A stretch of 25,428 nt of DNA from Coriobacteriia bacterium. Its GTDB lineage: Bacteria > Actinomycetota > Coriobacteriia > WRKU01 > WQUG01. Below are positions 18,813-25,219 of the stretch, one piece after another. The notes beneath the pieces are model-generated. The model had not been told where the DNA came from and ran no database searches. It worked only from the letters and a program-made list of their open reading frames with translations. The DNA is taken from positions 1-25,428 of the forward strand of contig WREJ01000001.1 in assembly GCA_009779395.1 (NCBI GenBank). The letters run 5' to 3'. A program made the position numbers and the translations under genes. Positions within the stretch are counted from its first letter, which is position 1, and each line of letters opens with the position of its first letter.

Positions 18813-20678
18813 TCAGGCTGTATCGCTTGTCTGCGCTATGAATGTTTCATGCCATACCAAGAAAATATACACAGCCCATACCTTGCGATAGGTATCTGCC
18901 GCATTCGACTGATGGTCGTCGATTAGCTGGTTCAGATAAGCAGTGTCAAAATACTGCCCTGCCACGTCGCTGCTAAAGGCCTCTCTGATCTGCTGGACGT
19001 ACTTTTCTTTGCGCAGCCAATCACGCAAAGGCACAGGAAAGCCTAACTTCTTTTTGCTGGCGGTGGCATCATCAATGTCACGGCGTGCAGCTGCCCGCAA
19101 GGATATCTTTGTGTCAGAGCGCGACACCTTGTCTTTTGCTGGTATCTGCCCTGCTAGCTTTGACACCTCTCTGTCAAGAAAGGGCGTCCTTATCTCGAGA
19201 GAATTTGCCATACTCATCTTGTCGGCCTTTAGCAAGATGTCACCTGTAGCCCAGACATTTAAGTCAACAGCCTGCATTCTGCTGACCGTTTCTGCACCAA
19301 GAGTCTGCGCGTAAAAGGGTGCGACTACTTCTTTTGGTGTGATGCTGTTGTTGTCAAGCAGTACCTTGTCCAGTTCTTGCGGGTCAAAGATAAAGTTTCC
19401 TGCCTGGAAATATCTCTGTTCAATGGGCTTTGCTCCGCGAATAAAGAAGTCCTTTCCTGGCGTGGCGTTTGGCAAAATACCTGCTGCCGCTGCTACACAT
19501 TTTCTGAGTGAGAGGGGAACTTTTTGGTAGTTGTCCATCCGCAAGCCATCGCGATAGGGATTGTAGCCTGCAAATAGTTCGTCTGCTCCCTCACCAGAAA
19601 ATGCCGCTTTGACCTGCTGACTTGCTTTGTTGCAGACAAAGTACAGCGACAGACAAGATGGGTCTGCCAGCGGTTCATCCAGGTGATACACAACCTTTTC
19701 GACGACAGAAAAGTAGCTGTCACTGGTGATTTCTGCAGCGTAGTTTTCCAGATTGTAGCGGCGCGCAAAGTCACGGGCAAAAGGCAGCTCGCTGTACTGG
19801 TCCTCGGCATATGCTGCACTGAAGGTTTTTGTGGGACTGATGTCATTGCTCAGTTTTGCCATATAGCTCGAATCAACACCACTCGACAAAAAGCTACCTA
19901 TCGCGACCTCTGCTGTTTGGTGGCAACGCAGGCTGTCTTTGAGGGTGCTGCTAATCTGCTGTACCCAGTAGTCAAAGCTCTTGCTGTAGTCGGGCGCAAA
20001 AGTATGGCAGTGATAGGCAGTAGTGGTCAGCCTCTCCTCTCTGAACTGAGGGTCCCTGAACTGAAAGTAAGAACCAGGGGCGAGCTTGAATACGTTTTTG
20101 AAGAGGGTGTCAGTACCTGGCACAAAGCCAAAGTTGAGGTAGGTCCCCAGTACAGCGGTGTTAAGCTGTGGTGTAAAGTTGGGGTGCTGGGCGAATGCCT
20201 TGATTTCGCTGGCAAACAGCAGGGCACCGTCACAGATATGGTAGTACAGCGGCTTGATGCCAAAGTAATCCCTTGCGCCAAACAGCTCGCGGGTTTTTAG
20301 GTCATAGATGACAAATGCCCACATGCCGCGGAGTTTGTCCAGCACATCTGGTCCATACTGCTCATAGCCAGCCAATACGACCTCGGCGGCAGTAGTGGTC
20401 GTAAAGCGGTGACCCTGGTCAATCAACTGTGCTTGTAGGTCTTGATGATTGTATATCTGACCGTCCAATACAATCAGCTTGTCTGCCGCAGCGTTAAAAA
20501 CGGGGCGCGTGGCATCTGTCTGGTCGCTGACCTGCAGCCCCCCAAAACCCAGTGCCAGATAGTCATCAAGGTAGGTCTCGCTGCTATCGGGTCCTCGGTG
20601 AGCAATCGCTGCAAGCATTGCATCAAGCACTGCTTCTCTGTTAGTCAGTTCTTTGGTAAATCCTACAAATCCCGACAC
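18813..20678 (-). CDS. AsnB-family amide ligase with degenerate glutaminase domain (starts MSGF, not MCGF)
   Basis: HRGPD, ARDYFGIKPLYY, FLSSGVDSS, SGEGADELFAGY, KADKMSMANSLEIRTPFLD, KKKLGFPVP; GTG start with SD. Confidence 0.9.
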   Translation of the reverse strand: MSGFVGFTKELTNREAVLDAMLAAIAHRGPDSSETYLDDYLALGFGGLQVSDQTDATRPVFNAAADKLIVLDGQIYNHQDLQAQLIDQGHRFTTTTAAEVVLAGYEQYGPDVLDKLRGMWAFVIYDLKTRELFGARDYFGIKPLYYHICDGALLFASEIKAFAQHPNFTPQLNTAVLGTYLNFGFVPGTDTLFKNVFKLAPGSYFQFRDPQFREERLTTTAYHCHTFAPDYSKSFDYWVQQISSTLKDSLRCHQTAEVAIGSFLSSGVDSSYMAKLSNDISPTKTFSAAYAEDQYSELPFARDFARRYNLENYAAEITSDSYFSVVEKVVYHLDEPLADPSCLSLYFVCNKASQQVKAAFSGEGADELFAGYNPYRDGLRMDNYQKVPLSLRKCVAAAAGILPNATPGKDFFIRGAKPIEQRYFQAGNFIFDPQELDKVLLDNNSITPKEVVAPFYAQTLGAETVSRMQAVDLNVWATGDILLKADKMSMANSLEIRTPFLDREVSKLAGQIPAKDKVSRSDTKISLRAAARRDIDDATASKKKLGFPVPLRDWLRKEKYVQQIREAFSSDVAGQYFDTAYLNQLIDDHQSNAADTYRKVWAVYIFLVWHETFIAQTSDTA

Positions 20679-20711
20679 GCTCTCTACCTTTACCTTCCCC
20701 CGAATTTCCTG

Positions 20712-21029
20712 CTACCAGATGGCAAGCGTCATAATACCAACGCACATCATTGTTGCAAGCATTATAAATAACAGACAGCCAATCACCAGTGCCCAGGAAA
20801 CCTTTGACTCGAATTCGCTCGACGTTGGCTTGTATTCCTGCCCCTGATAGGCAACTTTCCCCTGAAAGGGCTGGCTTTGATGGTAGGGAGTTTGCTGCGC
20901 TTCTTCAAGAAGAGCCTCGTCCACAACAGCAACATCGCCAGCACCAGCAGCAATCTTTGCTGCCTCGGCGGCGCGCCTTGCTGCGTTTTCTTTTGCCAGT
21001 TCTTCGCTAATGTAGATGTCATCACTCAT
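20712..21029 (-). CDS. Hypothetical 105-aa protein with a single C-terminal TM helix
   Basis: ATG 21029 with AAAGGA SD, overlapping the upstream stop; acidic/Ala-rich N-terminus; hydrophobic C-terminus ending ...TLAIW. Confidence 0.75.
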   Translation of the reverse strand: MSDDIYISEELAKENAARRAAEAAKIAAGAGDVAVVDEALLEEAQQTPYHQSQPFQGKVAYQGQEYKPTSSEFESKVSWALVIGCLLFIMLATMMCVGIMTLAIW

Positions 21030-22086
21030 GGTTCTCATCCTTTGTTTGTGCATTCTGTGGCAGGGCTGCCCTAAAGGGTGCCTTTTTTAAGGCAGGAATT
21101 GCTGTTTCAAGTTGTGTCCCGAGGGTGGCTGTCAGACTAGGAATCGGTTTTTCTAGCAGAGGAATGTCGGGTGCTTTTTGCAGCCACAGCTCCATACCCT
21201 TGCCCAGTGCCAGTGTTGATGCATAAGCAACCGCACATTTCAGCGGCAGGTTAAAGATACGCGACGTCCCTGCAAGCACGGTTCGCACCGCAGCACGCGA
21301 CGAATAAGCAGCTATGACAACAACAGCAGACTCGGCGACGCGAGAAAGCGTCAGATCCTCGCCGTAGATAAACGCCAACTGCAAGACCATCTTGATTTGG
21401 TTCATGGTCATCACCGGCAAATCTGCCCCCGGCACAAAAAAGACCGCAGCAATAATCGCGTTTTGGCGTGCGGTTGCCGTAATGGTCGAACTTGCTAGGG
21501 CGGGACGCATGAAGGCAAAATCAGCAGCTAAAGCCATACGATGCTCGCTTAAGTTGTCAGCAAACCAGTTTGCCATCTGCGTGGTCAGTAGCTCGTCTTT
21601 GCGAGCACTGGCAACGTCAAGAATGCTGATGTCATAGGCAGTAGCAGCGTCGTGGCGCAAGCCCTCTTCGAGGACGACCAGTGTTGGCAGACCCTGCTCA
21701 TGTGCTGCAGCAATCAGCTGCTGCGCACAGTCTGGGCCGTGAACTACAAAGACGGCAGCATCATAACTGACATGGTCGCTCAGGCTCATCTCGTCTTTGA
21801 TAACATGTACTAACACCCGTGTCTTTTCGCCAGCTGGCTTGAACAGTTGCACCAGGCAGTCAATGGTCGCATCAGCAAGGCGCGGATCGACAAACAATCC
21901 CAGCTTGAGGGTTTCGTTGCGCATTCCTAGGTAAGATTTCGCCTGATGCAGCAAACTGAGAGGCTGGACGGGCAAAGTCGCATAGCTTTTTTTGAAAATC
22001 GGCGCACCCGTCAGCGAGCCCAGTACACCCGAGTATTTTTGTAGGGTACTGACAGAACTCTGTAGTGAACTAAACGGTAATTTCAT
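21022..22086 (-). CDS. DUF697/YcjF-like membrane-associated protein
   Basis: PGADLPVMTMNQIKMVLQLAFIYG motif; start reset to ATG 22086 after GAGGAGGAG; overlaps the rodA end by 17 nt. Confidence 0.7.
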   Translation of the reverse strand: MKLPFSSLQSSVSTLQKYSGVLGSLTGAPIFKKSYATLPVQPLSLLHQAKSYLGMRNETLKLGLFVDPRLADATIDCLVQLFKPAGEKTRVLVHVIKDEMSLSDHVSYDAAVFVVHGPDCAQQLIAAAHEQGLPTLVVLEEGLRHDAATAYDISILDVASARKDELLTTQMANWFADNLSEHRMALAADFAFMRPALASSTITATARQNAIIAAVFFVPGADLPVMTMNQIKMVLQLAFIYGEDLTLSRVAESAVVVIAAYSSRAAVRTVLAGTSRIFNLPLKCAVAYASTLALGKGMELWLQKAPDIPLLEKPIPSLTATLGTQLETAIPALKKAPFRAALPQNAQTKDENHE

Positions 22087-23260
22087 GTGCTCCTCCTCTG
22101 GTGCGTGACAGGTATGGACGTCTGCTCCACACCGAGAACAGAACCCCACACGCAAGGATGTTAGTCACAATAGCAGATAAACCGTAACTCATAAAGGGCA
22201 GCGGGATTCCTGTAATGGGCATAAGTCCCATGGTCATGCCAATATTTTGCAGTATCTGAAAGGCCCACATACTGACAATACCCGCGCACAGCAGACTGCC
22301 GTAGAGGTCGCTGGAGGTACTACCAATCGCAAGGGCAATGACCAGCAAGGCGAGGTAGAGCCCCAGTAAAGCAGTAGTACCCACAAAGCCTGTCTCTTCG
22401 CCCAGTACGCTAAAGATATAGTCGGTCGAGCGTTCCGAAATAAAGTCGAGTTGTGATTGGGTGCCCTCGCCCAGACCCTTGCCGGTCATGCCCCCTGATC
22501 CTATGGCGATTTTCGACTGGTTTAAGTCATAGCCAGCACGATGCGGGTCAGCTGCACCTTGGTCTAAAAAGGCCGTCAGGCGCGTCAGCTGGTAGTTGCG
22601 AATCAGCAGGTGGTCACCCGGTCTGACGGTGTCATAGGTTAGGGAGTTTGCCCAAAACACCAGCGCGATTAATGCCGTACCACCCACTATCAGAGCCGTC
22701 ATATGGCGGGCTTTTGCTCCGCCGACAAACAGCATTCCTAGCATGATGATGATAAAGACCAGTGCCGTACCCAGGTCTGGTTGCGTCATCACAGCAAAAA
22801 AGGGAATCAGCGACAGACCAACAACCTTGCCAAAGGTACGCCAGTTATCGATACTGCCACCGTAGCGTGCAATAATGGCACCTAAAAGCAGTATCATCGC
22901 AATTTTTGCTGGCTCTGAGGGCTGCAGGCTGATACCGGTACCCGCTATACCAATCGAGCGATACACGCCAGCTGCTGTTGGCTGCCCAATCAGGGGAAGG
23001 CGCGGTGAAATCAGCAGGATGATGTTAATCAAAAAGAGGGGCATCAGCCAATCCTGCAGCTTGCGATAGTCAAACATCCAGGCAATTGCCATCAGGATAA
23101 GACCCAGGACAATGCCCTGGATTTGGCGCATCCAGCTGGCATCACCACGTACCGCCGTCTGCAAAAAGACAGCACCATAGGTGATAAGCAAGACCAGCAC
23201 AACCAGAAGCCCTGGATGCACCCATCTGTTAAAAGCACCTATGAAGTCAAATCTGCTCAC
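22070..23260 (-). CDS. rodA: SEDS peptidoglycan glycosyltransferase RodA
   Basis: LQPSEPAK, QPDLGTAL, YQLTRL, QSKIAIGSGG, TDYIFSVLGEETGF, GIPLPFMSYG; downstream of mrdA. Confidence 0.96.
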   Translation of the reverse strand: MSRFDFIGAFNRWVHPGLLVVLVLLITYGAVFLQTAVRGDASWMRQIQGIVLGLILMAIAWMFDYRKLQDWLMPLFLINIILLISPRLPLIGQPTAAGVYRSIGIAGTGISLQPSEPAKIAMILLLGAIIARYGGSIDNWRTFGKVVGLSLIPFFAVMTQPDLGTALVFIIIMLGMLFVGGAKARHMTALIVGGTALIALVFWANSLTYDTVRPGDHLLIRNYQLTRLTAFLDQGAADPHRAGYDLNQSKIAIGSGGMTGKGLGEGTQSQLDFISERSTDYIFSVLGEETGFVGTTALLGLYLALLVIALAIGSTSSDLYGSLLCAGIVSMWAFQILQNIGMTMGLMPITGIPLPFMSYGLSAIVTNILACGVLFSVWSRRPYLSRTRGGAHEITV

Positions 23261-23302: not shown

Positions 23303-25219
23303 CTAGCGCGAATCGTCTGTTGCAAGAACCAATTCTACTTCTTGCCCAAACAGATGGGCAAAAATCTGGCGTACTGCCGGTCCTGCCACGGCTCCGCCGC
23401 CGCCAGCATGCTCGATAATGACCGCTGCAACGTACTGCGGATTGTCAGCAGGCGCGTAGCCAACAAACAGCGCGTGAGAGTCCTGGTCGCGCTCTCCTGT
23501 TACGGGGTCTCGGCGTCCGACCTCTGCTGTTCCCGTTTTGCCGGCTACCTGAATGGGAAAGCCACGAAAGGCGCTGCGCCCCGTACCGTCGGTGATAACA
23601 CGCCGCAGGGCACGCTGCACAATCAAGAACGCTTGGTCGCTGAACTCTGGCTGGTTTTCACTAAGAGTTGGTTCCATTTCACGGACAATCTCGCCACGAT
23701 TGTCACGAATCGAGTGCAAAATCTGTGGCTGCCACGCCGTGCCGCCGTTTGCAATGGGCACGTGCGAGTACGCAAGCTGCAAAGGTGTTGCCAGCATGTC
23801 GCCCTGCCCAATGGACAGGTTCACCGTGTCGCCTGGAACCCACTGCCGGTATTCGGGGAAGTCTCGGTTCCAGTATGCCTTCCATTCGGCGTCGGGAACA
23901 CGCCCACGCGTCTCGCCGGGCAGTGCTATGCCCGTACGCTCACCGTAACCAAAGGCACGCGCGGCAGCCTGGATTTCTTCGTCCTCGCGCAGATAAAAGG
24001 CACGTCCAGCCTCGTAAAAATAGACGTCACAGGAATGGATGGTGCTGGCGTACATGTCCATCCAGCCGTGTCCCGTGCGCAGCCAGCAACGCCAGGGCCA
24101 CTGTTCGCCAAATCCCGTCCAGGTACCCTCGCAGCGGAAGGACTTGCTGGGTTCCCAGTGTAGTTTGTCAACAATCGCAAAGGTCATAAACGACTTGAAA
24201 GTCGACGCTGGTGGGTACATTGACGAAATCGCGCGATTGGTCAGGGGGAAGTTTGAGTCTTCGTCGGTCAGCTCTGCCCAGCGTTCTTGCGGAATGCCGT
24301 CGATGAACTCTTCGGGGTAGTAGGTGGGCAAGTTCACCATGGCAAGAACTTCGCCGGTTCTGACGTCCATGACCACCGCGGAGCCTGCTTGGGCGTCGGT
24401 AAAACCGTTAGACTGTGCCGTGCGCAAGGCATCAGCTAGTGCCTGCTGTGCCACACGACTGACATCGATGCAGATAGTCAGATAGATGTCTTGACCAGCG
24501 GTTGGTTCGGTTTCTTCGATGACGCGCTGCAGGTGACCCTGCGCATTGACCTCGAGCACACGGGTGCCACGCACACCCTGCAAAATGTGTTCAAAAGCAC
24601 GCTCTGCGCCCGTCTTTCCTACGACGTCACTGGGAATATAGTCAGCAAATGCCGCCATATTTAGTTCTTTGTCCGAGATATTGCCCGCATAACCCAAAAC
24701 ATGCGCTGCCAGATTTCCCTCGGGGTACTGGCGCACGGCACGCGCCTCGATTTCGACACCGGCAAACTCGTTGCTGTGTTCGACCAAATACGACACCGTT
24801 GGCATAGGAACGTCAATCGCCAACAGACGCAAGTCAAGCGGTCCTTCTCGGGTGGTTGTCAGACGCGCAACCACCTCTTCGGGGCTCAGATCAAGCGTTT
24901 CTGCCAGGCGATGAACCCACTGCTGCTGACTGTCTGAGAGCTGGTCAAACTCCTCAAAATTTTTAATACGCAAAGCAGGAGCCATTACTGCCATCGTTGG
25001 GCGATTGGTGACCAGAGGATTGCCATTGCGGTCAAAAATGCGCCCGCGAATTGACGCCGTTGTCGAAAGGCGGCGCAGATTGTTGTCCGCGCGATTCTGA
25101 AAGTAGTCGTGCTGGATAATCTGCAGCGTCCACAGGCGAAAGGCCAGCACAACAACAATCACAATCACCATCACCAGCAGAACAAAGAGTCGGCGATTTA
25201 TGCGCGATTCTATGGTCAC
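23303..25219 (-). CDS. mrdA: Class B penicillin-binding protein 2
   Basis: N-terminal TM, RGRIFDRNG, STFK (SxxK), SCDVYFY, GKTGTAE; GTGA overlap with mreD. Confidence 0.96.
   Translation of the reverse strand: MTIESRINRRLFVLLVMVIVIVVVLAFRLWTLQIIQHDYFQNRADNNLRRLSTTASIRGRIFDRNGNPLVTNRPTMAVMAPALRIKNFEEFDQLSDSQQQWVHRLAETLDLSPEEVVARLTTTREGPLDLRLLAIDVPMPTVSYLVEHSNEFAGVEIEARAVRQYPEGNLAAHVLGYAGNISDKELNMAAFADYIPSDVVGKTGAERAFEHILQGVRGTRVLEVNAQGHLQRVIEETEPTAGQDIYLTICIDVSRVAQQALADALRTAQSNGFTDAQAGSAVVMDVRTGEVLAMVNLPTYYPEEFIDGIPQERWAELTDEDSNFPLTNRAISSMYPPASTFKSFMTFAIVDKLHWEPSKSFRCEGTWTGFGEQWPWRCWLRTGHGWMDMYASTIHSCDVYFYEAGRAFYLREDEEIQAAARAFGYGERTGIALPGETRGRVPDAEWKAYWNRDFPEYRQWVPGDTVNLSIGQGDMLATPLQLAYSHVPIANGGTAWQPQILHSIRDNRGEIVREMEPTLSENQPEFSDQAFLIVQRALRRVITDGTGRSAFRGFPIQVAGKTGTAEVGRRDPVTGERDQDSHALFVGYAPADNPQYVAAVIIEHAGGGGAVAGPAVRQIFAHLFGQEVELVLATDDSR

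Follow-up and report, generated by a model that had tools for sequence, protein, structure and literature searches.

What does an asparagine synthetase B (AsnB) homologue use as its nitrogen donor, and what does it amidate, when the site at which such enzymes bind glutamine has gone? This question is raised by a gene on contig WREJ01000001.1 of a Coriobacteriia bacterium metagenome-assembled genome (MAG; GCA_009779395.1, here G000 of genus g1, 78% complete), of which positions 1-25,428 were analysed and are referred to as the window. The encoded protein, P0001, is of a type named 'asparagine synthase (glutamine-hydrolyzing)' in public records. We put the odds at about even (a probability near 0.5) that P0001 is instead an ammonia-dependent amidoligase of the AsnB/LtsA type acting on a peptidoglycan precursor, probably on meso-diaminopimelic acid (meso-DAP). 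The gene and the altered half of its product are laid out below, with residue equivalences taken from a HMMER alignment of P0001 to E. coli AsnB (1ct9) except for Arg58, which comes from the conserved-column comparison.

18813..20678, minus strand: AsnB-family open reading frame (ORF) for P0001, 621 aa, GTG start; Pfam GATase_7 and Asn_synthase, TIGR01536; AlphaFold predicted local distance difference test (pLDDT) 89
20094..20678, minus strand: N-terminal nucleophile (Ntn, class II glutaminase-like) domain, residues 1-195; fold kept, active site gone; pLDDT 84-95 except in loop 51-60
20673..20675, minus strand: Ser2 (TCG) for the Cys1 nucleophile
20538..20540, minus strand: Gly47 for Arg49, which binds the glutamine alpha-carboxylate
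20505..20507, minus strand: Arg58 for a conserved Gln just ahead of the cis-Pro in the glutamine loop
20463..20465, minus strand: Asp72 for Asn74 of the oxyanion hole, a change that recurs in other Cys-less lineages
20457..20459, minus strand: Gln74 for Glu76
20388..20390, minus strand: Ala97 for Asp98, which binds the glutamine alpha-amino group

In ASNS/AsnB, the residues replaced in P0001 form the network that recognises glutamine and stabilises the thioester (PMC6748925). Of the family's 'RR' pair it is the second Arg that corresponds to Arg49, and its loss is shared by the Cys-less relatives at large. The ORF begins GTG-TCG (Val/Met-Ser); a TAG closes the same frame 11 codons further upstream, and none of the intervening codons encodes Cys. 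An upstream start or a propeptide that might supply the missing Cys was excluded from the upstream reading frame, both for P0001 and for PurF of the same genome. A first-pass annotation made from the letters of the window had described Ser for Cys at this N-terminus and changes at all five equivalents of Cys1, Arg49, Asn74, Glu76 and Asp98 (to S, G, D, Q and A), and both descriptions are borne out, the first by the ORF reading with its upstream TAG and the second by the alignment to 1ct9.

How selective the loss has been was measured over the 64 alignment columns in which 91 canonical ('CRNED') relatives show conservation of 93% or more, 27 of these columns lying in the synthetase domain and 37 in the N-domain. 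P0001 has lost 7 of the 64 in all. The synthetase domain retains 26 of its 27 columns and its sole loss is a conservative Val to Ala change, while the N-domain retains 31 of 37. The six N-domain losses are exactly Cys1, Arg49, Asn74, Glu76, Asp98 and the Gln before the cis-Pro, and all of them line the glutamine site. Seven losses placed at random among the 64 columns would cover all five named sites with a chance of about 3e-6. P0001 has thus undergone targeted removal of its glutamine site, not general decay, and it does not have what defines the glutamine-hydrolysing asparagine synthase of its public annotation.

The window is present in termite-gut metagenomes. An independent ENA assembly contains a full-length copy (P0123) that differs from P0001 by one substitution, and contigs from a second termite-gut study cover residues 19-80 with zero differences; because these agree, P0001 is not an assembly artefact. 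Contigs from two termite-gut runs carried identical fragments with no variation. Family membership was equally clear. Pfam places the class II glutaminase (GATase_7/6) at about residues 30-165 and Asn_synthase at 242-611, with scores above the curated cut-offs (PF00733 at 259 bits, PF13537 at 114 bits), and TIGR01536 (asparagine synthase) gives 400 bits over a cut-off of 267, placing P0001 in the AsnB family. The more specialised models gave scores below their cut-offs, namely lasso cyclase (NF033535, 177 bits vs 525), macrolactam cyclase (NF033561, 29 vs 300) and XrtA/PEP-CTERM amidotransferase (TIGR03108, 414 vs 817), and the NCBIfam model for E. coli-type AsnB also scored far under its cut-off. 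The AlphaFold model, built on a 35-sequence alignment, has a pLDDT of 89 and a predicted template modelling score (pTM) of 0.90 and is weak only at loop 51-60. The folds closest to it are those of TsnB9, E. coli AsnB, human ASNS, beta-lactam synthetase and carbapenam synthetase, and TsnB9 (7ylz) is the best match in the Protein Data Bank by structure and by sequence alike.

The synthetase half is organised as follows.

18816..20093, minus strand: synthetase (PP-loop ATP pyrophosphatase) domain, residues 196-621; intact, 26/27 conserved columns
19866..19886, minus strand: PP-loop motif SSGVDSS, residues 265-271
19578..19598, minus strand: motif SGEGADE, residues 361-367, holding the equivalent of E. 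coli AsnB Glu348
19218..19238, minus strand: ILLKADK, with Ile481 and Lys484 at the sites of E. coli AsnB Asp384 and Arg387 (ungapped register anchored on R-x-PFLD)
19173..19193, minus strand: motif IRTPFLD, residues 496-502

With KKKLGFPVP at residues 542-550, all four motifs that the first-pass annotation had called retained (SSGVDSS, SGEGADE, RxPFLD and KLGF) were located. The annotation had also argued from the full-length ORF against a pseudogene, and this holds on further grounds, as the modelled fold is that of AsnB/TsnB9 and the N-domain has not evolved faster than that of its Cys-bearing sisters. With the site columns removed, the ratio of N- to C-domain divergence from outgroups was 0.93 for P0001 vs 0.95-0.98 in those sisters, so a general acceleration of its N-domain was looked for by this measure and not found.

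Selection could also be followed in close pairs of relatives. In the Cys-less sister-species pair P0004/P0125 (L044:10000-11889 vs L039:1872-3761) the ratio of nonsynonymous to synonymous substitution rates (dN/dS) was 0.22 in the N-domain and 0.07 in the C-domain, and changes fell 7 to 1 on the N-domain side. The synonymous rate was itself about 6-fold higher in the first 195 codons (0.087) than in the rest (0.014), which suggests a recombination breakpoint within this gene. Reading the N-domain excess of this pair as relaxed selection was dropped since dS is raised there too, and much of the excess was attributed to recombination. P0006 and P0126 diverge in amino-acid sequence by 22% over the N-domain and by 7% over the C-domain (Fisher p = 3e-7), and close pairs of Cys-bearing orthologues gave N/C ratios of 0.7-0.9. 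These comparisons indicate that the synthetase domain is strongly constrained and that constraint on the N-domain is weaker but real. The check proposed with the first-pass annotation, for co-loss of the site residues together with purifying selection, thus returned a site-specific loss and a C-domain dN/dS of 0.07 in the sister pair.

The same data bear on whether P0001 might be a catalytically silent pseudoenzyme, such as an elongasome scaffold or regulator, or a gene in the course of being lost. The reduced genome would suit this, and the family can decay, as is seen in a separate long-branched Cys-less clade of five members (P0143, P0162, P0198, P0241 and P0252; L061:2594-4315) in which 26-63% of the conserved synthetase positions are lost. 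That clade may be decaying or gaining a new function, which is not the pattern of the P0001 group. P0001 itself keeps 26 of 27 synthetase positions including the PP-loop and SGEGADE, two independent assemblies carry its ORF at full length, and the dN/dS of the sister-species pair is well under 1, making a silent or dying gene highly improbable.

Loss of the glutamine site proved to be recurrent. The closest relatives of P0001 all come from Coriobacteriia MAGs and have mixed Cys states, so that an outcome named beforehand as fatal to the first reading, with every close homologue keeping Cys1 and P0001 under relaxed selection throughout, is not what the data contain. P0003 and P0005 (63-64% identity to P0001) bear the Cys and a canonical site, while P0004 of the same genus (64% identity) and P0006/P0126 (59%) are Cys-less. 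More Cys-less AsnB copies occur within the same order in G025/G031, in a second paralogue of G040 and in G007/G034. In an N-domain survey of the best 150 cluster representatives at 50% identity, 133 were canonical and 7 were Cys-less in the style of P0001. Those seven carry Ser or Gly at position 1 and Asp at 74 without exception, and six of them have a residue other than Arg at 49. On a tree built from the synthetase-domain columns only, the Cys state has to change six times. Grouping all Cys-less sequences in one clade was rejected (delta log-likelihood 382, p-AU 1.7e-5), a test weakened somewhat by the group having been defined after the tree was viewed. Because a clade of P0001 with P0004/P0006 was not rejected, the count is given as at least five independent Cys losses in this AsnB subfamily; the Cys-less members with a named source are Coriobacteriia. 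The Ser codon is TCG in P0001 and AGY (AGT or AGC) in every other Cys-less gene for which DNA was available. A literature search confined to open-access text turned up no description of housekeeping AsnB enzymes without the Cys.

What replaced the lost residues was not random. Five of the six Cys-less lineages carry Asp in place of Asn74, the sixth carries Ser, and no Cys-less sequence keeps Asn. Position 49 varies among them (G, E, Q, W, H, Y or R). Since the fixed Asp at 74 contrasts with drift at 49, the pattern suggests that Asp74 has been selected. This convergence, the recurrence of Ser at position 1 and the use of Ser or Thr by other Ntn hydrolase families could together be taken to mean that Ser1, once Met is removed, is a working nucleophile that has built, with Asp72, a new site able to hydrolyse glutamine or some other amide donor. 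We regard such a site as a very long shot. Arg49, Glu76 and Asp98, which hold glutamine, are gone as well, and the related Cys-less P0198 and P0241 have Gly at position 1. In addition, changing Cys1 of E. coli PurF to Ser or Ala abolished glutamine use and left ammonia-dependent activity, and AsnB likewise lost function on the same Cys1 change (PMC3261824). The gene for P0198 has a VanRS-like two-component system and a VanY/M15 peptidase as neighbours.

A second enzyme of the same genome has changed in parallel and bears on the nitrogen donor.

G000:C134, L048:673-2097, minus strand: PurF, with an MSGIIG start and GHATY for GHTRY

This PurF has Ser for Cys1, FNGK for HNGN and no glutamine-carboxylate Arg, while its phosphoribosyltransferase motifs and Fe-S cysteines are kept. 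PurF was Cys-less in all five genomes of genera g1 (G000, G040) and g3 (G007, G034, G028; also L063-L066), and AsnB was Cys-less wherever it was found in them, G028 being the genome in which it was not found. No GlnA (PF00120, about 450 aa) and no GlmS (TIGR01135) turned up in these five genomes, the nearest being a weak 67-bit match to the GlnA family on a 739-aa ORF of G028. With the genomes 59-93% complete, incompleteness alone would hide GlnA from all five with a joint probability of about 2e-4. A NagB/Pgl-family gene occurs in four of the five and could supply glucosamine-6-phosphate from ammonia or from an imported amino sugar. Control genomes of the same order (G010, G016, G004 and G001) have GlnA, GlmS (MCGI) and a Cys-bearing PurF, and their AsnB either bears the Cys or is absent. 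Across the other genomes of the order nine PurF sequences were compared (G037 was left out and none was found in G025); all nine keep the Cys, G013, G022, G019 and G031 among them. Two Cys-bearing PurF proteins, from L051 (G016 copy a) and L052 (G031), have SNSQA or STSQA for SDSE, changing the Asp127 equivalent, and may represent intermediate erosion of the glutamine site.

The parallel change narrows the choice of donor. AsnB/ASNS mutants at Cys1 (C1A/C1S) are glutaminase-dead and remain ammonia-dependent synthetases. Because the only alternative donor for PurF is NH3 and PurF has changed alongside the AsnB-like protein in the same cells, NH3 would be the donor for both. The first-pass annotation had left the donor as either free ammonia or an organic or peptide amine; the ammonia half of that proposal now has the parallel PurF change behind it, and the other half is disfavoured by the synthetase domain, which is 65-67% identical to those of the Cys-bearing orthologues P0003 and P0005. 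A ligase that joins an amino acid or other amine to a wall precursor, or closes an intramolecular lactam, still has precedent, since beta-lactam synthetase, CarA and the lasso cyclases descend from AsnB with dead glutaminase sites and are represented among the structural matches, and some Cys-less copies lie beside a racemase and an ATP-grasp-like gene. That P0001 is such a ligase is nevertheless quite unlikely. Its synthetase domain is so close to that of the Cys-bearing orthologues, with 26 of 27 positions kept and no remodelled acceptor or nucleophile site seen, that ammonia is favoured over an organic amine; the lasso-cyclase and macrolactam models scored far under their cut-offs, and the PurF change points to NH3.

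The acceptor was approached through the synthetase residues and the gene context. P0001 lacks the Asp384/Arg387 pair by which true asparagine synthetases are recognised and has Ile481 and Lys484 instead. From the Glu of the SGE motif to the Arg387 equivalent there are 121 residues in P0001 vs 39 in E. coli AsnB, reflecting an insertion of about 80 residues before the KADK segment. Loss of the Asp384/Arg387 pair is a reported mark of meso-DAP-amidating AsnB proteins (PMC8554201), and an extra loop is a further mark described in the same paper. P0001 shows both the absent Asp/Arg pair and an insertion, the insertion being judged by its length and the loop by its description.

Upstream of the AsnB-like gene lies a co-directional string that opens with two cell-wall genes.

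23303..25219, minus strand: PBP2 (MrdA), first gene of the string; TIGR03423 at 572 bits, cut-off 455
22070..23260, minus strand: RodA-family SEDS protein; PF01098; TIGR02210 at 324 bits, just under the cut-off of 337
21022..22155, minus strand: 377-aa ORF between RodA and the AsnB-like gene; weak DUF697 match, no NCBIfam match
20712..21053, minus strand: 113-aa ORF; no informative family match; TAG stop 33 nt upstream of the AsnB-like GTG

The order is PBP2, RodA, the 377-aa ORF, the 113-aa ORF and, last, the AsnB-like gene after a 33-nt gap. The genes overlap or are closely spaced, with the 377-aa and 113-aa ORFs overlapping their neighbours, and no convincing terminator was found inside the string. 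On the same strand beyond it come Rrf2, BipA, a small ORF and then a PgdA-like polysaccharide deacetylase. The Cys-bearing orthologue of G016 (64% identity) lies 29 nt after murG at the end of the dcw cluster and ahead of an Amt-PII gene. MurE of G000 carries DNPR, the motif of meso-DAP-adding enzymes, so its peptidoglycan probably contains meso-DAP. The elongasome and dcw contexts and the DNPR MurE fit the role on a cell-wall precursor that had been proposed in the first-pass annotation.

Production of free L-Asn from L-Asp, ATP and NH3, without any role in the wall, was weighed against this context. P0001 scores above the TIGR01536 cut-off and is the only AsnB homologue found in the G000 assembly, in which no AsnA was found either; the B. 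subtilis counterpart has been described as possibly promiscuous (PMC8554201), and in a cell without GlnA asparagine could act as an amide donor or nutrient. Translation, however, would make no call on it. In none of six genomes of the order did a match to asparaginyl-tRNA synthetase (AsnRS) reach the cut-off, and five of the six have GatB, so free asparagine is not needed to charge tRNA. C. glutamicum is in a like situation, and its one AsnB homologue, LtsA, amidates meso-DAP (PMC8554201). With Ile and Lys at the aspartate-binding positions, an elongasome context here and a dcw context for the orthologue, an ammonia-dependent asparagine synthetase appears unlikely, though it deserves more weight than the other alternatives.

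Several features of the surroundings were recorded in their own right. The TAG of the 113-aa ORF is exactly in frame with the GTG of the AsnB-like gene (window 20679-20714), which is probably a coincidence; read-through would bury the N-terminus. An alanine racemase adjoins other Cys-less AsnB copies, a further link to the cell wall. G040 (L039, G040:C24, 1872-8129) has two Cys-less AsnB-like paralogues, with site states SEDES and SHSRD, flanking an alanine racemase and a 420-aa ATP-grasp-like gene, an arrangement that may be a wall side-chain module. A similar string (AsnB-like, 653-aa, Alr, 458-aa) stands beside P0276. A conserved partner gene, either a trans-acting glutaminase or an ATP-grasp ligase, was sought and none was found, the 377-aa and 113-aa ORFs of the window being without informative matches. 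G000 has no homologue of the sister species' ATP-grasp-like gene; it does have one of a 428-aa neighbour from genus g9, located elsewhere and not adjacent to the AsnB-like gene.

From these findings we propose a working scheme for ammonia-dependent amidation of a wall precursor. The synthetase domain of P0001 would adenylate a carboxylate (ATP to AMP and PPi) and then amidate it with free NH3/NH4+. Ammonia, which is abundant in the termite hindgut, might enter through the emptied glutamine pocket and the tunnel, or reach the synthetase site without passing through them. As acceptor, the epsilon-carboxyl of meso-DAP on UDP-MurNAc-peptide or lipid II would be the likeliest; meso-DAP is what AsnB of B. 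subtilis, L. plantarum and L. monocytogenes amidates, and LtsA of C. glutamicum too. The amidated precursors would feed an elongasome whose genes appear to be co-transcribed with the AsnB-like gene. The change of donor could form part of a lineage-wide shift away from glutamine, with no detectable GlnA or GlmS and a PurF without Cys1 and the glutamine-binding Arg. More tentatively, and with the balance of probability somewhat against it, a small-genome clade of termite-gut Coriobacteriia (g1 and g3) may have lost GlnA and GlmS and made both PurF and AsnB obligately ammonia-dependent on a dead glutaminase scaffold, the same route (Cys1 to Ser or Gly, Arg49 loss, Asn74 to Asp) having been taken at least five times independently in the AsnB family, with the Asp perhaps adaptive, for example in capture or deprotonation of NH4+ at the tunnel mouth.

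A number of observations weigh against this reading. PyrG of G000 (G000:C68:411-2105, minus strand) keeps its Cys-His-Glu triad (GVCLGMQ / HPE), so glutamine is still used somewhere in the cell, and no ammonium transporter (Amt) was found in G000 by tblastn. Loss of glutamine synthetase does not always go with a Cys-less AsnB, as genus g9 has such an AsnB and keeps GlnA. Since the G000 MAG is 78% complete, a GlnA or a second, intact AsnB could lie in the part that was not assembled. The gene neighbourhood differs among the Cys-less copies, plain loss of function leaves the convergent change of Asn74 to Asp unexplained, and placing P0001 in the meso-DAP subgroup would draw on two literature-described features and gene context. 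PyrG is the only match to a class I glutamine amidotransferase (PF00117) in the G000 assembly, and the idea of an organism wholly without glutamine use was rejected since its catalytic triad is intact.

Glutamine amidotransferases are textbook coupled two-site enzymes. Natural housekeeping forms with a site-less glutaminase domain are, to our knowledge, barely documented, the known cases being crenarchaeal PurF' and the secondary-metabolism offshoots of AsnB. The wider pattern is of more interest than the single gene: the same few substitutions, Asn74 to Asp among them, recur independently, affect two enzymes of one genome through a Cys-less PurF, and coincide with the apparent loss of GlnA and GlmS. 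It offers a natural experiment on roles of the N-domain beyond catalysis (tunnel, allostery, ammonium capture) and a setting in which a possible rewiring of the nitrogen donor can be tested, in a gut symbiont surrounded by ammonia. It is also a warning for annotation, where such proteins bear the glutamine-hydrolysing name. If the acceptor is meso-DAP, P0001 would be the first member of the AsnB family to amidate peptidoglycan with ammonia as its donor.

Among known systems P0001 most resembles the meso-DAP amidotransferases (B. subtilis AsnB, L. plantarum AsnB1, L. monocytogenes AsnB and C. glutamicum LtsA), with which it shares an Ntn plus PP-loop architecture of about 620 aa, the lack of the Asp-binding Asp/Arg pair, a large insertion before KADK, peptidoglycan neighbours and a host whose MurE carries DNPR. 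Like the Actinobacteria of PMC8554201, the host of P0001 needs no AsnB for Asn-tRNA. All characterised meso-DAP amidotransferases, in contrast, are glutamine-dependent with Cys1, whereas P0001 has Ser1 and no glutamine-binding residues. E. coli AsnB and human ASNS share the fold of the P0001 model (Foldseek E 1e-28 to 1e-23), but their Cys1 mutants are engineered asparagine synthetases, while the state of P0001 is natural, conserved and recurrent, comes with five further pocket changes and probably serves a different acceptor. Beta-lactam synthetase, carbapenam synthetase, the lasso cyclases and the hydroxyamidotransferase TsnB9 are likewise derived from AsnB with an N-domain that does not carry out ordinary release of ammonia from glutamine. 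The beta-lactam synthetase and lasso-cyclase group works in secondary metabolism with strongly diverged sites and intramolecular amines or special donors, whereas the synthetase site of P0001 is of the housekeeping-orthologue type. Crenarchaeal PurF' proteins are natural Cys-less homologues of class II amidotransferases proposed to be ammonia-dependent (PMC3261824), and the Cys-less PurF of G000 is a direct parallel to them; PurF' coexists with a Cys-bearing PurF, whereas the Cys-less PurF and AsnB of G000 are the only copies found. Among NAD synthetases, lineages switch between glutamine and free ammonia as the donor (PMC3376133), but in the ammonia-using NadE the glutaminase domain is absent, whereas P0001 keeps the domain as a scaffold with its site removed.

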